DNA from: an uncultured virus (IMG/VR IMGVR_UViG_3300006100_001445)
Taxonomy: Duplodnaviria > Heunggongvirae > Uroviricota > Caudoviricetes
Reading direction: 5' to 3' (one strand)
Virus record (IMG/VR): IMGVR_UViG_3300006100_001445
DNA length: 20,000 nucleotides
Positions 26-6,558 of the stretch are shown here, piece by piece. The stretch's first letter is position 1. Each line of letters begins with the position of its first letter. The notes below the pieces were generated by a model, which saw nothing but the letters and a program-made list of their open reading frames with translations, was not told where the DNA came from and made no database searches. Both the position numbers and the translations under genes were made by a program.

Positions 26-1111
26 TTAAGTTGCATTGTTGATCAATTTGGTAATTTGATTGGCAGCATACACAGTCCAATCAGTTTTCATAATCAAATT
101 GAAATTGTGTTCCAACACATCTTGTATGCGGTTGTACACTTCAGTTTGGTCCATTGCACACAATCGCTTGACCTGCTCAAATGCCTGTGTGTAACGTTCT
201 GTGTCGTTCTTGATCAAATCGTAACTTTCGTCAATGACCGAATCAAAGGTTCGAAATCCCAAACTGTGCAGATTGGCCAAAAATTTATATCCGGTAAAGG
301 CCACAAATAATCTTCTAGCAATCATGGGTTTGGCTGTTTTTTCGCTGTAGAAGCTTAGGGTATTGTCGTGGTCCGTTTCGGCAATAACGCTGTAGGCTGT
401 GTCGTTAAACACAGAGATTGGAATCACTCTACTCAGTCCAGTGTGTACACCGTAGTAGCGCACAGGACCAGCTGTACCTGGCTCTTGCTTGCCGACCACT
501 TCAACACCAGGTTCCCAAATAAAATAATCGCGGGCATAGAAACTGTTGTCGTCCCATTTGCCACCATAGGTTATAATAAATTTATCTTCTAATTTGTTAG
601 ACTTGACCGAGTCGGCAACAAAAGTTCTGTGTGGTTTGGGACTGCCCAGTAATGCATCAAAGTATTTGGGTTTGGGTAACGTATAAGAAATTTGATTCAA
701 CTGTGCCGGTAACTTTTTATACAACAACGTGGTTGTTTTGAACCAGTCTCCCCAAAAAACAATATGGCCATTCATGTCAGGAGCATCGTTGACTTGCCCG
801 GGCACAACCCAATACACATTGTTGTGATGACATTGGTCCCACATATCCCAATGGTAATGATGCAATTCACTTTCAAAACTAAACACCAATTGGCTGATAG
901 CACTGAGTTTGTTTACTTTGTCTTCAAATCCTTGATATGCTGTACAATTTATATCTTCGTTGCAATGTAGGCGTTGCATAGTAAATGCTATTTTTACTGG
1001 ATCTGCACTGGCCGCATATTCGTCAAAACTGTGACACAAGGTGTACGAAGGCAACTGTAACTGTGGTAACCAATCCTGATCAATAATTTGACTATCGCTG
1101 AAAACTATCAT
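26..1111 (-). CDS. Putative glycosyltransferase-like protein (GT10/alpha-1,3-fucosyltransferase-like C-terminal motif), 361 aa
   Basis: Long ORF whose ATG overlaps the iscA stop (ATGA). C-terminal YSVIAET...FYSEKTAKPMIARRLFVAFTG...LGFRTFDSVIDESYD resembles the SEK/TEK nucleotide-sugar-binding motif of GT10-like enzymes. Confidence 0.55.
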   Translation of the reverse strand: MIVFSDSQIIDQDWLPQLQLPSYTLCHSFDEYAASADPVKIAFTMQRLHCNEDINCTAYQGFEDKVNKLSAISQLVFSFESELHHYHWDMWDQCHHNNVYWVVPGQVNDAPDMNGHIVFWGDWFKTTTLLYKKLPAQLNQISYTLPKPKYFDALLGSPKPHRTFVADSVKSNKLEDKFIITYGGKWDDNSFYARDYFIWEPGVEVVGKQEPGTAGPVRYYGVHTGLSRVIPISVFNDTAYSVIAETDHDNTLSFYSEKTAKPMIARRLFVAFTGYKFLANLHSLGFRTFDSVIDESYDLIKNDTERYTQAFEQVKRLCAMDQTEVYNRIQDVLEHNFNLIMKTDWTVYAANQITKLINNAT

Positions 1112-1434
1112 ACTCTAAAACTTTCACCACAACCGCAACGATCTCGTTCATTGGGATTGATAAATTCAAATCCTTCGTTGAGCCCTTGGCGTACATAATC
1201 TATTGTCATACCGTCTAGATATACGGTGTCTTTGAGATCCACTAGAACAACAAAATCAGGTTGAGCATAATTGATAATGCCTTCTTCTCCTTCGTATTTG
1301 TCTACATATTCCAGTGTATAGGCCATACCCGAACATCCGGTGGTTCGTACGCCCACACGAATTCCAACGCCCGAGCCGCGTTTTGACAAATTGGCTTGAA
1401 TTTTTTTACGTGCTGTGTCGGTTACGGTAATCAT
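1108..1434 (-). CDS. iscA: Iron-sulfur cluster assembly A-type carrier protein IscA (HesB family), 108 aa
   Basis: GIRVGVRTTGCSGMAY motif and C-terminal CGCGESF signature; three conserved Cys. Confidence 0.95.
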   Translation of the reverse strand: MITVTDTARKKIQANLSKRGSGVGIRVGVRTTGCSGMAYTLEYVDKYEGEEGIINYAQPDFVVLVDLKDTVYLDGMTIDYVRQGLNEGFEFINPNERDRCGCGESFRV

Positions 1435-1786
1435 TTACAGCCGCCTTGATTGCATCTTCGGCCAAGATTGAGCAGTGGATTTTGACTGGCGGAAGTGCGA
1501 GTTCTTCTGCGATTTGAGAATTTTTAATTTCCATTGCGGCATCGAGTGTTTTGCCTTTAACCCATTCTGTAACCAGCGAGCTACTTGCAATCGCGCTACC
1601 GCACCCATACGTCTTGAACTTAGCGTCTTGAATAATCCCATCTACCACCTTTATTTGAAGTTTCATTACATCACCACAGGCCGGTGCACCGACCATACCG
1701 GTACCCACGTTGGTATCGTCTTTGGCAAACGAACCCACGTTGCGCGGATTTTCATAGTGGTCAATTACTTTGTCACTGTAGGCCAT
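1406..1786 (-). CDS. iscU: Fe-S cluster scaffold protein IscU, 126 aa
   Basis: MAYSDKVIDHYENPRNVG, GAPACGDVM, YGCGSAIASSS and LPPVKIHC (HscA-binding LPPVK). Start placed at ATG 1786 after AGGA, not the ORF-track start 1855. The 3' end overlaps iscA by 29 nt. Confidence 0.96.
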   Translation of the reverse strand: MAYSDKVIDHYENPRNVGSFAKDDTNVGTGMVGAPACGDVMKLQIKVVDGIIQDAKFKTYGCGSAIASSSLVTEWVKGKTLDAAMEIKNSQIAEELALPPVKIHCSILAEDAIKAAVNDYRNRHST

Positions 1787-1787
1787 A

Positions 1788-1949
1788 TTATTTTCCTGTT
1801 GGGGACTTGGGTGGCTGTGGTGGTTTGGGTGCCTGTGGTGCTGGCGCCGGTGCAACTGGTTTTTTAAAGCTGTCTACCAACTGTTGTAAACCGGCAGCTT
1901 GAACAGAGCCGGCTGTTAATAATACAAAAATAAAATATATCTTTTTCAT
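1788..1949 (-). CDS. Small exported proline-rich protein, 53 aa (missed by the ORF track)
   Basis: Manual translation: MKKIYFIFVLLTAGSVQAAGLQQLVDSFKKPVAPAPAPQAPKPPQPPKSPTGK*. Signal-peptide-like N-terminus (VQA|A). ATG overlaps the upstream stop (TGATG) and the TAA lies 1 nt before the iscU ATG. Confidence 0.75.
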   Translation of the reverse strand: MKKIYFIFVLLTAGSVQAAGLQQLVDSFKKPVAPAPAPQAPKPPQPPKSPTGK

Positions 1950-2753: not shown

Positions 2754-3460
2754 TAACGACGCTCGCGGCCTAATTCTTCTTCACCACCAACTGCGGCATC
2801 AGTAGCATCAAACCCATCAGCGCCATCAGCATCTAAATCGCTTTCTGGTTCTGGACCAAGATCAGCACCGGCGTCTGCAGGAGCACCTGCATCTAATCCA
2901 GTGTCACCGCCCATGCCCATATCCATTGGCTGTTCAACTTGTTCGCCGGCTAGGCCACGAACTGCTGTGTCAGCTTGGTCACGACCTGTGCTGACTGCTT
3001 GGTATAAACTTGTTAGTAAAGGAGCCATTGCACCTTTGAATTGTTCTGCTTGCTCGCTGCCGATTTGGTCACGAATTGTATCTACCAGGGCTGGCATCTG
3101 TTCGTTTTGCATCTTGGATACTTTTTCCAACATATCTTGCACAGAGTCAACCATATCTTTGGCAGCCAATACTGCTTCGCTCTTGCCCATTTCACTTTCA
3201 AACAAACCTTGTTCGCTAGTTAGCCATTTGTTCAGGCCTTCTTTGACCAACATAAGTTCTATGTACTTTGGATTCTTTTCAGCGGTGTGTGCGCCAAAAG
3301 AACGTTTGATTGATTGAATGTTTTCACCCAGTGCTTTGGCCAAACGCTGTGCCTTGGCATAAGTTAAATTGTCATAGTCAATAGAAAAACCAAAGCGGCT
3401 TTCCATAACTTTGTTAATTTTTTGTGGTGTTACTTCGGTACGCATTTCAGAGAGTCTCAT
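2753..3460 (-). CDS. Hypothetical helical protein with acidic low-complexity C-terminus, 235 aa (possible prohead core/morphogenesis protein)
   Basis: Start placed at ATG 3460 (MRLSEM), downstream of CTAAATA at 3491-3485. Helical Glu/Met-rich middle and Asp/Gly/Ala-rich tail. Confidence 0.7.
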   Translation of the reverse strand: MRLSEMRTEVTPQKINKVMESRFGFSIDYDNLTYAKAQRLAKALGENIQSIKRSFGAHTAEKNPKYIELMLVKEGLNKWLTSEQGLFESEMGKSEAVLAAKDMVDSVQDMLEKVSKMQNEQMPALVDTIRDQIGSEQAEQFKGAMAPLLTSLYQAVSTGRDQADTAVRGLAGEQVEQPMDMGMGGDTGLDAGAPADAGADLGPEPESDLDADGADGFDATDAAVGGEEELGRERR

Positions 3461-3465
3461 TTTGT

Positions 3466-3999
3466 TTATTCCCAAACTTTGTAGTATTTAGCTATATTAT
3501 GTATTTTTGTCATCCTGTCCCGAGCAAGATTTAGCCGAGTTTCAGCCATTTCTAACCTGGGAAGACGGGTATCTACTGTTACATAATCTTGTTGTTTTTT
3601 TGCCTTTTCAATAATATTACGTAAACATAACATATCTGTATAACATTTATTTATTATTCTATCAACTGACAGTATTTCATCTGCCCTGGCATACTGTTGT
3701 TTGGTCAAGTAAATAGCGTACAAAATTGCTGAAATTTTGCTTTCAAAACGGTGCACCAGTTCTCTATTGACATCAAATAAGTCGCAAGTTTTGTTGGGAT
3801 TTACAGTGAGTCTATACAGTCCCACTAGATATCCGTCTTTGACTTGCACACAAACTGGACGTGGTTCATTGCTTTGTATACGGCCTAACTCGCGAGAAGT
3901 CCAATGTTTGATATAATCTGCAGCAACGTTGGTTATTTCCTTCGGGACCGAAGTACGAGGTTTTTTAGCGTATTTTTTTTGAGTATGTGATCTTGCCAT
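3466..3999 (-). CDS. Hypothetical protein, about 177 aa
   Basis: ORF in a tightly packed operon; start at 3999 or 4005; overlaps the end of the upstream 69-aa gene. Confidence 0.7.
   Translation of the reverse strand: MARSHTQKKYAKKPRTSVPKEITNVAADYIKHWTSRELGRIQSNEPRPVCVQVKDGYLVGLYRLTVNPNKTCDLFDVNRELVHRFESKISAILYAIYLTKQQYARADEILSVDRIINKCYTDMLCLRNIIEKAKKQQDYVTVDTRLPRLEMAETRLNLARDRMTKIHNIAKYYKVWE
3485..3491 (-). promoter_or_regulatory. Putative T4-type late promoter (CTAAATA)
   Basis: TAAATA core about 25 nt upstream of ATG 3460; lies within the end of the upstream gene. Confidence 0.45.
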
Positions 4000-4174
4000 T
4001 TTCATTACGACGAAGTAATATATCTTGCGTCGTTAGTTGATTTGCTATAAGCTGTTCTCTTTCATTTAGAGAGTTTTTTAATATGCTGGGTTCGTGTTGA
4101 AAACGTCCCAATAAATCAGCTTGTTCATTATTTAAGGCAATTTGTACTTGGTTAATTAATTCTACGATTTTCAT
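3965..4174 (-). CDS. Hypothetical protein, 69 aa
   Basis: ATGA overlap with the upstream gene; N-terminus MKIVEL. Confidence 0.7.
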   Translation of the reverse strand: MKIVELINQVQIALNNEQADLLGRFQHEPSILKNSLNEREQLIANQLTTQDILLRRNENGKITYSKKIR

Positions 4175-4431
4175 TTTGATACGAGGTGTACCACTAAACC
4201 AAAAACACCAGCTAGTAGTGCTACAAAAATAGCAGTACCAATTGTGATAAGAGTTTTGTTACTGTCGCTACCGACACGGCCAATGGAATCCTTGATGTCA
4301 ACAATATGGGCTTCTAATTTGTCCATACGACCATCAAGATGTATTAATTTTGTCTCCAAAGCAGAGTATCGCTCCGCGCAAAGTTCTACGTGGGCTTCTA
4401 GACTCTTCTTTTCGATGTCAGTTGTAGACAT
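4171..4431 (-). CDS. Small coiled-coil protein with a C-terminal transmembrane helix (XhlA/holin-like architecture), 86 aa
   Basis: GAGGA RBS; heptad segment YSALETKLIHLDGRMDKLEAHIVDIKDSI, then hydrophobic LITIGTAIFVALLAGVFGLVVHLV. Confidence 0.7.
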   Translation of the reverse strand: MSTTDIEKKSLEAHVELCAERYSALETKLIHLDGRMDKLEAHIVDIKDSIGRVGSDSNKTLITIGTAIFVALLAGVFGLVVHLVSK

Positions 4432-4523
4432 AGTTCCTCGCTTTTTTCATGTTAAGCGATGCGTTGATTTGCCTGTGTGTGCCGTGATATGAGCCTTAAT
4501 AGTTGCCTTATAGCATCTATTAG

Positions 4524-4530
4524 TATTTAT
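4524..4530 (-). promoter_or_regulatory. T4-type late promoter (ATAAATA)
   Basis: Minus strand ATAAATA overlapping the TAA stop of the upstream gene, ahead of a roughly 90-nt leader. Confidence 0.6.
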
Positions 4531-4964
4531 GCTACGGGATTGATTTGCCTAAAGTATATGTTTTTTATAGTGCCATATGGATAAAATATCGGCAACATAA
4601 ATCGAGCAGTTTCGGCAAGTCCGGTAATGATAGGTACCTGCTCAAAATCCTGTTGCAATCCACCTATAGGTTTGCCTGGAAGGTCGTATACTCCGTTGCC
4701 TTCTACAGCCCACTGCCAGGTCCATACCTGCTGTATGCCTTCATAGAAATCACCAAAGCTCAGTCGATCCAATTCAATTTCTACCACAGTAGGCAGTTGT
4801 ATATGTTGTGGTTGAGTACGCAGGCTCATACATTGTATGACTGTTTCCCAGTTGCGCTGTTGATGTCGTTCTACTGCGTCAGGATCTGAGCTGCGGACCA
4901 CACCGGTAGCAGTGATGTCTACTAGACTGTAGCCTTGAAAAAAATACAAATTAGATTCTGACAT
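4527..4964 (-). CDS. Hypothetical late protein, 145 aa
   Basis: Start placed at ATG 4964 (MSESNL), just after ATAAATA at 4979-4973. The ORF-track start 4997 lies inside the terminator. Confidence 0.75.
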   Translation of the reverse strand: MSESNLYFFQGYSLVDITATGVVRSSDPDAVERHQQRNWETVIQCMSLRTQPQHIQLPTVVEIELDRLSFGDFYEGIQQVWTWQWAVEGNGVYDLPGKPIGGLQQDFEQVPIITGLAETARFMLPIFYPYGTIKNIYFRQINPVA

Positions 4965-4972
4965 AGTGCTAG

Positions 4973-4979
4973 TATTTAT
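4973..4979 (-). promoter_or_regulatory. T4-type late promoter (ATAAATA), near-leaderless transcript
   Basis: ATAAATA 8 nt upstream of ATG 4964, directly after a terminator; no SD present. Confidence 0.6.
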
Positions 4980-4986
4980 CGGCCAC

Positions 4987-5013
4987 AAAAAAAGCAATCA
5001 TAAAGATTGCTTT
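4987..5013 (-). terminator. Rho-independent terminator
   Basis: Minus strand AAAGCAATC-TTTAT-GATTGCTTT followed by a T run, downstream of the 118-aa gene. Confidence 0.8.
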
Positions 5014-5034
5014 CTTCGTTATAGTTAAAAACTA

Positions 5035-5391
5035 TTAAGCAAACTTGATGCCACCTGCGCTTGATACAACAGCGTTAGCTGAAATTGTACGTACACGAGT
5101 TTGTTTAGTTGCATCGTTAGAACCAGTAGCTTCTAAAAGAACGCTTAACTGAGTTGAGCTAACTTGATATGCTGTGATAGTAGAATCGATAGCGATTTGC
5201 TTTAGAATTGATTCAACGATACCACCAGTAGCTGAGTCAGCTGCTGATAATGTGCCGATAGAAGTAATCTTTAAGCCGATTGGGTTCTTTGTTAAACCTA
5301 AACCGATAACTGTATCTAGTGTACCATCATATGTTGCGTCAACGTTGTTAACGCCATTTGCATCACCTGCATAACGTGTCTGAATTGCCAT
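5035..5391 (-). CDS. Probable abundant virion structural protein, 118 aa
   Basis: Strong TAAGGAG RBS, own late promoter and own terminator. Ala/Gly/Ser/Thr-rich. Start MAIQTR at 5391. Confidence 0.7.
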   Translation of the reverse strand: MAIQTRYAGDANGVNNVDATYDGTLDTVIGLGLTKNPIGLKITSIGTLSAADSATGGIVESILKQIAIDSTITAYQVSSTQLSVLLEATGSNDATKQTRVRTISANAVVSSAGGIKFA

Positions 5392-5433
5392 TTTAAATCT
5401 CCTTAATATGTGTGGTCTCAATGGACCTATAAT

Positions 5434-5440
5434 TATTTAT
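5434..5440 (-). promoter_or_regulatory. T4-type late promoter (ATAAATA)
   Basis: Intergenic ATAAATA about 43 nt upstream of ATG 5391; small GGTC/GACC hairpin in the leader. Confidence 0.65.
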
Positions 5441-5466
5441 GCTTTCGAACAAAAAACGGGTTGTTA

Positions 5467-6558
5467 TTAACGGGCAAATAATGCCTGGCTAAACACAGTT
5501 CTTTGTACCAATTTTACTGGGCCTTCTGGGGTACTGAATACAAATCCTTCGCCAGCTGGCTGTCCGTTTACATATTGCCCAATACCTTGTACCTGGCGTT
5601 CCAGTTGCTCGGTTAAATTGACTTTGAACGCATAAACCGCGTTCCAAATCGCAAAAACTGCGGCCACACCGTTGATGTGCTGATACAGGTATCCGTCTTG
5701 GTTTTCACCCAACAAAAACTTGCGTAATTTTTGAGTAACATTAGCAGATTGTAACCAATCTGATAATTCTTCGTGCGTTTGCCCAGTAATCTTTTTGTTT
5801 GCATACTGTTTCAACGCAGCACGTGCTTTGTCATCTAGGCCGGCCAAAAAGCTGTCGGCCACTGTGCTGTACTTCTTTAAGGTGCTCACTGCGGCTTTGT
5901 GCAAACGCACAGGATCATCCAATGTAAATTTGATATTGGCACTGGGCGTCAAAATTGCTGTGGGTGCATTAAAGTCAAGCCCTTGCCCGTTCCAAGGTTG
6001 TGGTCTAGCGTGTTCGTCGGCCAGATAAGTGTGTACCACAATACCGCCTTGGCGTCCGGCTATCTGTTGACCTAGACTGCTTTTTACTGGAATATGATAT
6101 TCAACCACATTGGGTTTGAACACAAACTGGCCTTTGACTGGTCGAAGTGGTGCACTCCATAGCAGATCGCCCCAGAAGTATCCAGGTACATTGCCCACCG
6201 CTTGATCTAGACCAGGCCAAATGTTGGCAATGCGTTGATACAAATCGTTACGATTCTTGCCGCGCTCTTGATCGTAACGTACCCAATCTTCAGGGCTGGT
6301 AACTCGACCGTGCGGCTTGTCAAACATATACTTGTCCATCACAGTCAACTGACCGTCGGCATTACGACCAAATACCAAGGCAGGAAATCCATCCCACTTG
6401 ATTGTCAGGCTGCCAGGATCTTTGATTACAGATTCCATTGCACCTACCATACGTTCAGCGACTGCTGTGCCATCAAATATGGCATCTTCAGGATGTGGAG
6501 TACGTGCTGGTGCTGCTTTGACTTCTAGCAGGACCTCATTGATAAAATTTAATTCCAT
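5467..6558 (-). CDS. Ligase-fold covalent nucleotidyltransferase-like protein (DUF6267-like), 363 aa
   Basis: HPED, TIKWDG (motif I KxDG), WGDLL (motif III-like), GEGFV (motif IV) and VKLV (motif V) in the order seen in ATP-dependent RNA/DNA ligases. Confidence 0.65.
   Translation of the reverse strand: MELNFINEVLLEVKAAPARTPHPEDAIFDGTAVAERMVGAMESVIKDPGSLTIKWDGFPALVFGRNADGQLTVMDKYMFDKPHGRVTSPEDWVRYDQERGKNRNDLYQRIANIWPGLDQAVGNVPGYFWGDLLWSAPLRPVKGQFVFKPNVVEYHIPVKSSLGQQIAGRQGGIVVHTYLADEHARPQPWNGQGLDFNAPTAILTPSANIKFTLDDPVRLHKAAVSTLKKYSTVADSFLAGLDDKARAALKQYANKKITGQTHEELSDWLQSANVTQKLRKFLLGENQDGYLYQHINGVAAVFAIWNAVYAFKVNLTEQLERQVQGIGQYVNGQPAGEGFVFSTPEGPVKLVQRTVFSQALFAR

Follow-up and report, generated by a model that had tools for sequence, protein, structure and literature searches.

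A GGC-repeat RNA leader with putative binding sites upstream of a conserved gene module in a T4-like jumbo phage

Arrays of A(N)GGA motifs are the targets of the Csr/Rsm system, where they are bound by CsrA/RsmA dimers, and the rings formed by TRAP and HutP bind (G/U)AG or UAG triplet repeats, TRAP-type arrays consisting of nine to eleven (G/U)AG triplets 2-3 nucleotides (nt) apart. To our knowledge, very little is known about post-transcriptional control in jumbo phages beyond T4 and phiKZ. According to PMC3014915, gp55 together with gp33 recognises the T4 late promoter TATAAATA, and whether the ribosome site is accessible depends on late promoters that lie within or beside RNA structures. 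Here we analyse a leader in a 20,000-nt stretch of DNA (the window) that is part of the 157.9-kilobase (kb) record of an uncultured virus, IMG/VR IMGVR_UViG_3300006100_001445. The leader carries four GGC motifs in a loop closed by a stem and precedes a gene coding for a protein of 86 amino acids (aa). We rate it as a new RNA motif, a cis-acting messenger RNA (mRNA) leader with repeated putative binding sites, whose anatomy is well supported and whose mechanism is conjectural.

The leader shares with Csr/Rsm targets that several short GG motifs lie single-stranded in a 5' leader, at least 10 nt apart and near the ribosome-binding region, that the sites are modular and variable in number, and that an A often precedes GG. 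Unlike the Csr GGA core, however, GG is followed by C in 54, 53, 54, and 53 of 55 relatives at repeats 1 to 4, respectively, and the motifs reside in one large loop instead of hairpin loops, with none of them overlapping the Shine-Dalgarno (SD) sequence. The likeness to TRAP and HutP targets lies in evenly repeated, triplet-centred motifs within an unstructured leader that is, or in our case would be, read by an oligomer, binding of which refolds neighbouring helices. The period here is 10-14 nt as compared to about 5-7 nt, there are 2-6 repeats instead of 6-11, the motif is another one, and the downstream helix is no terminator. T4 itself offers post-transcriptional control in mRNA leaders by operators adjoining the start codon (gp32, gp43, RegA) as well as the leaders of gene e and I-TevI. 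No T4 operator, however, is known to be a GGC array: RegA sites overlap the AUG, and the gene 32 operator combines a pseudoknot with an A/U-rich tract. In our leader the promoter is located in front of the structure, not within it. The sequence TAAATA, found a few bases before the presumed transcript start and before many genes of the record, resembles the core of the T4 late promoter TATAAATA, which is served by gp55, gp33, and the clamp, but only six bases are conserved here.

The original prediction, which had drawn the conceptual parallel to Csr/Rsm and TRAP, had asked for an Rfam search. This search gave no family match, and the motif is indeed distinct from those of Csr (GGC core, not GGA) and TRAP. 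With Rfam 15 nothing in the 20-kb window reached the gathering score, and in the region 4300-4700 an E-value threshold as loose as 10 returned only two chance-level matches to eukaryotic families (14 bits, as compared to cut-offs of 60-70). Full-text searches of the literature yielded no description of a GGC or GGCAC repeat leader. The searchable tables of a catalogue of 10,006 viral structured-RNA candidates (PMC10690425) contain neither a 17-mer of the element nor any of three to four contig names nor the terms XhlA or hemolysin; as this applies to the tables and not to the alignments of that catalogue, a prior listing there is possible.

Anatomy and conservation of the leader

All coordinates are read on the minus strand, which also carries all genes around the leader. 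The leader is located in a gap of 95 nt (4526-4432) between an open reading frame (ORF) of 145 aa and the 86-aa ORF, and is composed as follows, P1 and P2 denoting its two stems:

4529-4524, minus strand: TAAATA, resembling a T4 late-promoter core; its first three bases are the TAA stop codon (4529-4527) of the upstream 145-aa ORF
4517-4513, minus strand: GAUGC, 5' strand of P1, with 6 nt between TAAATA and GAUGC
4507-4502, minus strand: repeat 1, GGCAAC, with GGC at 4507-4505; counts over 55 sequences R (G 49/A 6), G 54, C 54, A 54
4495-4490, minus strand: repeat 2, GGCUCA, with GGC at 4495-4493; counts of 55: G 54, G 54, C 53, U 47
4483-4478, minus strand: repeat 3, GGCACA, with GGC at 4483-4481; counts of 55: G 55, G 54, C 54, then A 43/U 12
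4473-4468, minus strand: repeat 4, GGCAAA, with GGC at 4473-4471; counts of 55: G 52, G 51, C 53, then A 24/U 24
4462-4458, minus strand: GCAUC, 3' strand of P1, in phase with the repeats
4459-4438, minus strand: P2, a hairpin of UCGCUU (4459-4454) and AAGCGA (4443-4438) with a 10-nt loop, predicted in the folds of nearly all relatives
4439-4435, minus strand: GAGGA, SD-like, its first two bases inside P2
4431-4171, minus strand: the 86-aa ORF (ATG at 4431-4429), first gene of a conserved module

The four GGC are spaced 12, 12, and 10 nt apart, the 50-nt loop (4512-4463) contains no G outside them, and the first two bases of P2 (UC, 4459-4458) also belong to P1. Motifs, spacings, loop, and both stems thus agree to the base with what had been read from the window at the outset. 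The gap had been called unusually long; judged from crude ORF calls of the whole record it is long, lying at about the 90th percentile of same-strand gaps (median 1 nt), but not extreme, with 20 of 179 gaps measuring at least 95 nt. Runs of four or more GGC at a spacing of 9-15 nt occur nine times on both strands of the record, and that of the leader is the only G-poor one.

Relatives were collected in two sets. A protein-guided scan of viral contigs yielded at least 587 relatives of the 86-aa protein, the best 80 of which were fetched (set 1). The 130 nt upstream of the homologues share one layout and gave 66 distinct leaders, and a covariance model was built from 15 of these, with E ≤ 0.01 defining a match. 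A second scan, seeded with a homologue of 47% identity, found 397 relatives with 55 distinct leaders, and 51 loci were searched (set 2). The element was detected in 55 of the 66 leaders of set 1, always directly upstream of the homologue and nowhere else in these loci (±3 kb), and in 20 of the 51 loci of the more distant set 2. The upstream regions of 86-aa homologues have thus been aligned as had been proposed; the repeats and the closing stem, whose absence from relatives would have spoken against a structured leader, are kept there, and the stem covaries. The record of the window contains a single match to the model, and five large relatives (129-338 kb, the 338-kb one being 97% complete) contain one true match each. 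One match per genome in six of six large records indicates that the element is specific to one gene and no general feature of late leaders. Among eight homologue-bearing contigs binned into metagenome-assembled genomes (MAGs) the element is present in one, the closest, which is labelled Polynucleobacter; six of the seven others are labelled as Bacteroidota taxa. In loci lacking the element TAAATA lies 24-41 nt before the ATG, sometimes together with a plain hairpin. A scan of viral contigs with a degenerate pattern (GATGC..GGCA..GGCTCA) proved too loose, with real elements in 2 of 80 fetched loci. Given the 587 and 397 relatives of the downstream gene, freshwater viromes probably hold hundreds of variants of this leader.

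The repeats are constrained in sequence and variable in number. In the 42 leaders with exactly four GGC the repeat unit has the consensus Y-A-U-U-A-A-GGC-W-C-A with G-free flanks, and the G, G, and C of each repeat are kept in 49-55 of the 55 aligned sequences. Among all 73 distinct elements GGC is followed by A 188 times, by U 87 times, by G once, and never by C; the loop holds four GGC in 57 elements, three in 12, two in three, and six in one; and of 203 spacings between neighbouring repeats 198 measure 10-14 nt. Along an array, the base behind GGC tends to switch between A and U (GGCAC, GGCUC, GGCAC, GGCUC). In the element with six repeats (L058, 2890-2988; L numbers are our handles) these arose from a tandem duplication of a 24-nt unit, GGCAC...GGCUU, a close relative (L043) having four. 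Alternation and duplication together suggest a two-site unit. The distal strand of P1 reads GGCAUC, i.e. a fifth repeat, in 8 of the 73 elements. This also holds for a clade comprising L260, L261, L264, and L275 (about 505-591), which has five GGC, the last inside the distal P1 strand, and an extra hairpin, GUAGCA-AUAA-UGCUAC, between TAAATA and GAUGC. Two further leaders, L280 and L283, have three or four GGCAC repeats after TAAATA and no GAUGC/GCAUC stem, showing that the repeats are able to exist independently of P1. No complementary GCC array was found on either strand of the 157.9-kb record. Variable number, variable spacing, and constrained sequence fit modular, single-stranded, sequence-specific sites.

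Both stems are conserved as pairings. RNAalifold, applied to a plain MAFFT alignment of 54 leaders, returned exactly the five pairs of P1, none of them broken, with 15 one-sided changes (G-U) and two double changes. In the model-fitted alignment of 55 sequences 98.6% of the cells are paired, as compared to 90.7% in shuffles; five of eight pairs show double changes, and the observed values were reached by none of 500 shuffles. Sliding the partners by one to three columns in this alignment lowers pairing to 13-49%. P1 is paired in 99.6% of the set-1 cells, with pair types such as GC (51), GU (2), and AU (1); UA (45) and UG (9); or CG (50), UG (3), and UA (1), and in 100% of the set-2 cells, where the outer pair is also AU (2) or GU (1). 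Its double changes are GAUGU/ACAUC in L008 and AAUGC/GCAUU in the L027/L237 lineage and in L218. The three inner pairs of P2 are the top three mutual-information pairs of the whole alignment and covary in both sets, none of 500 shuffles attaining the scores observed, while the sequence of P2 varies freely (CGCU/AGCG, CGUUC/GAACG, UCCU/AGGA, UCUCG/CGAGA, and others), confirming that the hairpin noted next to the ribosome-binding region is real. A mutual-information check of the alignment columns revealed no Watson-Crick covariation inside the loop. As pairing is kept through compensatory and G-U changes, the element points to RNA of the sense strand. The 3' end of P2 lies 2-17 nt before the start codon among relatives, and their SD sequences are weak: 18 of 57 leaders have a 4-mer SD and 4 a 5-mer, as compared to 98 and 54, respectively, among 225 ORFs of the record. 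The minimum-free-energy fold of the window sequence with flanks (UAAUAG.UGCU/GGCA.CUAUUA, z = -2.1) differs from the P1/P2 fold and is not kept in relatives, so it was rejected. We also discarded upstream ORFs, as the ATG found in the P2 loop or inside the repeats of some sequences is not conserved.

TAAATA occurs within 60 nt upstream of 44 of 230 ORFs and is thereby the commonest of 15 hexamers of the same composition, followed by the overlapping ATAAAT with 29. Its distance to the start codon falls into two groups: 4-10 nt in 15 ORFs and mostly 15-33 nt in the rest, often with AAGGAG in between. The 15 ORFs, which include the upstream 145-aa gene (TAAATA 4978-4973, ATG 4964), suggest that many late messages are leaderless or nearly so. 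In front of the 86-aa gene TAAATA lies 92 nt before the ATG, whereas no leader above 48 nt appeared within the 60-nt search window. All loci whose sequence extends far enough, also those lacking the element, have TAAATA in front of the homologue; only these six core bases are conserved, the two bases preceding them varying in relatives. TAAATA precedes GAUGC by 5-9 nt in relatives, the same distance as between TAAATA and ATG in leaderless genes, and the transcript therefore probably begins 6-9 nt after TAAATA, at or adjoining the G of GAUGC. We infer from the motif that TAAATA acts as a late promoter, and it is also the motif that suggests late timing.

Proposed mode of action and competing explanations

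The reading we favour, though only tentatively, is that the leader combines an array of operator sites, bound by an oligomeric RNA-binding factor, with a small stem switch of two states. The leader would present three to six, usually four, single-stranded copies of (A/U)(A/C/U)GGC(A/U)C(A), 10-14 nt apart in otherwise G-free sequence; the 5'-terminal GAUGC would close the repeat stretch by pairing with the distal GCAUC, and P2 would follow P1 directly, reaching the ribosome-binding region of the first gene of the conserved six-gene module. A putative sequence-specific, oligomeric RNA-binding factor of phage or host would occupy the repeats and thereby set translation and/or stability of the mRNA. 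By holding the repeats single-stranded it would favour P1, so that the 5' end would be buried and P1 would take the shared UC from P2, shortening the latter from 5-6 to 3-4 pairs. In the competing state the 5' UGC would pair locally with the GCA of repeat 1 (P1a), and P2 would be extended by pairing of the shared UC with a conserved GA. That the repeats are binding sites is suggested by their anatomy, and the binder is putative. An array for a multimeric RNA-binding protein, as initially proposed, is still the best reading of this anatomy, while the part of the proposal that concerns the protein found no counterpart, as no binder emerged from our scans.

The sequences are compatible with such a switch. 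The loop of the local 5' hairpin is UACG in about 31 of 55 sequences, as judged from column counts, and the local stem reaches 4-5 pairs where repeat 1 is GGCAUY or AGCGUU. Of the GA that would partner the shared UC, the G is kept in 54 and the A in 47 of 55 sequences. P1 can be imposed at a median cost of only 1.35 kcal/mol relative to the minimum-energy fold (n = 56), and 97% of the cells are compatible in sequence with the alternative pairings. A two-state switch is thus plausible as a model. A more specific version, which is possible but which we regard as doubtful, is an undescribed operator-regulator pair of jumbo phages. In this version an oligomer would read AGGC(A/U)CA with a period of about 12 nt, the 5' GAUGC would act as an "anti-repeat" toggling between repeat 1 (UACG hairpin) and a distal fifth repeat (GCAUC), and occupancy would bury the 5' end and partially open the hairpin at the ribosome site.

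Several results weigh against an operator array with a switch. P1 alone is weak, with a median pair probability of about 0.002 and a value above 0.5 in only 1 of 56 sequences, and its covariation rests on three lineages. The significance given by the shuffle tests is too high, since related sequences were compared and the counts were made on alignments that had been fitted to the model. For the alternative state (P1a and extended P2) the pairs are compatible yet double changes are missing, which makes the switch plausible rather than demonstrated, and P2 covers the SD sequence in some relatives only, not consistently. As to the binder, the CsrA family (PF02599) is absent from five of five phage records, in which the controls matched, host proteins being outside this search. 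No RNA-binding regulator came up when the neighbours and 225 ORFs of the record were scanned with PHROGs and Pfam (the first 125 ORFs with PHROGs only; the last 100 with Pfam, 65 of those also with PHROGs). No gp55-like sigma factor was seen in the general ORF scans of the 43%-complete record, which included no targeted gp55 search. Finally, loci with and without the element do not differ in their nearby genes, so that local co-occurrence gives no clue to the binder.

Two rival explanations dispense with a dedicated binding protein. The four GG could form a two-layer G-quadruplex or a compact tertiary fold closed by P1, i.e. a riboswitch or ion sensor controlling P2. Such a protein-free RNA would account for four GG in an otherwise G-free, stem-closed loop, for the extra stabilisation that P1 needs, and for the two bases common to P1 and P2, which recall expression platforms. 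However, 15 of the 73 elements have only two or three GGC and one has six, and in 6 of 55 sequences repeat 1 has A in place of its first G; these short arrays and AGC variants argue against a G-quadruplex, and a G-quartet provides no role for the invariant C and the A/U following GG. When the architecture was compared with that of riboswitches, we found two covarying stems and, between the strands of P1, a region lacking covariation and variable in length and repeat number. Spacers of 7-11 nt that vary in length, a loop without internal covariation, and a tolerated 24-nt duplication (L058) argue against a fixed aptamer, as does the lack of an Rfam match, making a folded RNA of this kind quite unlikely. 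A translation enhancer or ribosome standby site, where (U)AAGG parts serve as weak SD-like contacts or the A/U-rich spacers as S1 sites that load the 30S subunit, has just as little probability in our judgement. AA precedes GGC in 68 and UA in 29 of 213 repeats, giving AAGG and UAAGG, the SD of the gene itself is below the average of the record, and the phage carries genes for bS21 and IF-1. At each repeat, however, GG is followed by C in 53-54 of 55 sequences, where an SD sequence would have A, and this invariant C argues against SD mimicry; moreover, the natural variants are AGC rather than GGA, 81 of 213 repeats have AC or CA before GGC, and the conserved W-C-A after GGC is left unexplained.

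The repeats could instead be a decay or processing element cut by a sequence-specific endoribonuclease, the 5' stem merely protecting the mRNA end. The GC(A/U) core, which resembles the reported specificity of MqsR-type toxins, is the most invariant part, with A or U following GGC in 275 of 276 repeats and AGC variants keeping GC; the sites are single-stranded, and a stem at the extreme 5' end recurs, the L260 clade adding a separate 5' hairpin. Yet cleavage needs no four evenly spaced sites, the purine before GCW and the C-A behind it are conserved as well, and no nuclease candidate was found, so we regard decay as rather unlikely. Explanations at the DNA level are very improbable. The approximately 11-12 bp period is near the helical repeat, the spacing of repeats 1 and 2 is 11 in 26 of 42 elements, and GGCAC with GC(A/T) about 11 nt further on is similar to the -24/-12 elements of sigma-54 promoters, as would suit a repressor or roadblock array just downstream of a late promoter or sigma-54-like GGCAC-N-GC(A/T) elements. 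Spacings that drift between 10 and 14 nt, 12/12/10 in the window, argue against phased sites and against the strict spacing of sigma-54 promoters. The repeats number two to six, on one strand, in one orientation, and in G-free context, always within the leader of one gene, and the G-U pairs that maintain P1 and P2 would be C-A mismatches on the other strand. Helically phased DNA sites, put forward in the original prediction as an alternative, are thus disfavoured, and so is its further suggestion of an independent small RNA. Such an RNA would be transcribed from the late promoter and might, for instance, sponge a host RNA-binding protein, the mRNA arising only by read-through. In its favour, the leader has a promoter-like core of its own and a defined stem at the 5' end, small RNAs that sponge proteins typically carry repeat arrays, and a strong late promoter would yield many copies. 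However, neither strand contains a terminator-like site between 4432 and 4530, that is, none separates the element from the ORF; P2 lacks a U tract and ends 2-17 nt before the start codon; and the element is single-copy and always before the same gene, so that this possibility appears as remote as that of DNA sites.

If the repeats are an operator array, their clear sequence signature and natural variation in number provide a handle for finding a new RNA-binding specificity of phage or host. The element also makes it possible to study how the timing of one structural or membrane module is set apart from that of the other late genes of a T4-like phage, the leaders of those genes being 4-48 nt long or missing in the same genome. 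Should the binder be host-encoded, the abundant late leader could in addition act as its sponge.

The source phage and the genes around the leader

The window belongs to a record rated 43% complete, and its source is an uncultured freshwater T4-like jumbo phage related to Rak2 and PA5oct. The record encodes a T4-like replication set (UvsW-like helicase, DnaB/gp41-like helicase, primase, clamp-loader ATPases), and the helicase shares 45-48% identity with its counterparts in Agrobacterium phage Atu_ph07, in the Pseudomonas PA5oct group, and in similar jumbo myoviruses. Searches of cultured phage records gave no match to the region 3400-5500 (blastn) or to the 86-aa protein (tblastn). Genes of the TctC type, together with the MAG contig labelled Polynucleobacter, hint weakly at a betaproteobacterial host. 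The features beyond the leader are:

4964-4527, minus strand: upstream 145-aa ORF, preceded by a TAAATA of its own (4978-4973; 8 nt from the ATG) and, further upstream, by a terminator-like hairpin (5013-4991)
4174-2328, minus strand: downstream genes of 69, 179, 240, and 141 aa, whose neighbouring starts and stops overlap or abut
L211:18369-18620, L214:16833-17027, L209:14069-15993, L216:8115-11267, L211:19370-19822: translation and chaperone genes of the record
Window 1108-1855; L214:18212-18538, L214:13147-15062, L215:13956-14906: Fe-S assembly, superoxide dismutase, peroxiredoxin, and TctABC genes

The 86-aa protein combines an N-terminal coiled coil with a hydrophobic C-terminal helix. 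Its gene heads a tightly packed module of 86, 69, 179, 240, and 141 aa, with the same synteny whether or not the element is present. As starts and stops abut or overlap, the five genes are probably cotranscribed on one mRNA. Two members of the module match PHROGs named virion structural protein, and for the basic 179-aa protein the ESM Atlas returned only viral clusters lacking names. A lysis-type function had been suggested for the 86-aa gene. The protein matches phrog_1193 "hemolysin" weakly (E 1.1e-4, an XhlA-like match) and DUF7310 below the cut-off, and has no Pfam XhlA match at E ≤ 0.01; with its gene heading a module with structural PHROGs and with a clear endolysin and a GTA-type holin-like gene located elsewhere in the record, about 110 kb away, this role is not supported.

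Upstream of the 145-aa gene a palindromic hairpin, AAAGCAATC/GATTGCTTT (4991-5013), is followed by a T run on the minus strand and separates a 118-aa gene from the TAAATA of the 145-aa gene; hairpin and adjoining TAAATA look like a terminator-promoter junction. The record further encodes a large translation and chaperone set, comprising bS21, an IF-1 homologue, GroES/GroEL, DnaJ, a ClpB-like ATPase, and Hsp20, and carries genes for IscU, two IscA-like Fe-S assembly proteins, superoxide dismutase, peroxiredoxins, and a TctABC tricarboxylate transporter set. A 102-aa protein (L214:3824-4132) matches the WYL_2 family, an Sm-like SH3 barrel (PF10902, E 2e-11), a type of fold whose oligomers are able to bind RNA. 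The window also codes for a 363-aa DUF6267 protein (5467-6558, E 1.3e-31), located between the module and the replication genes.

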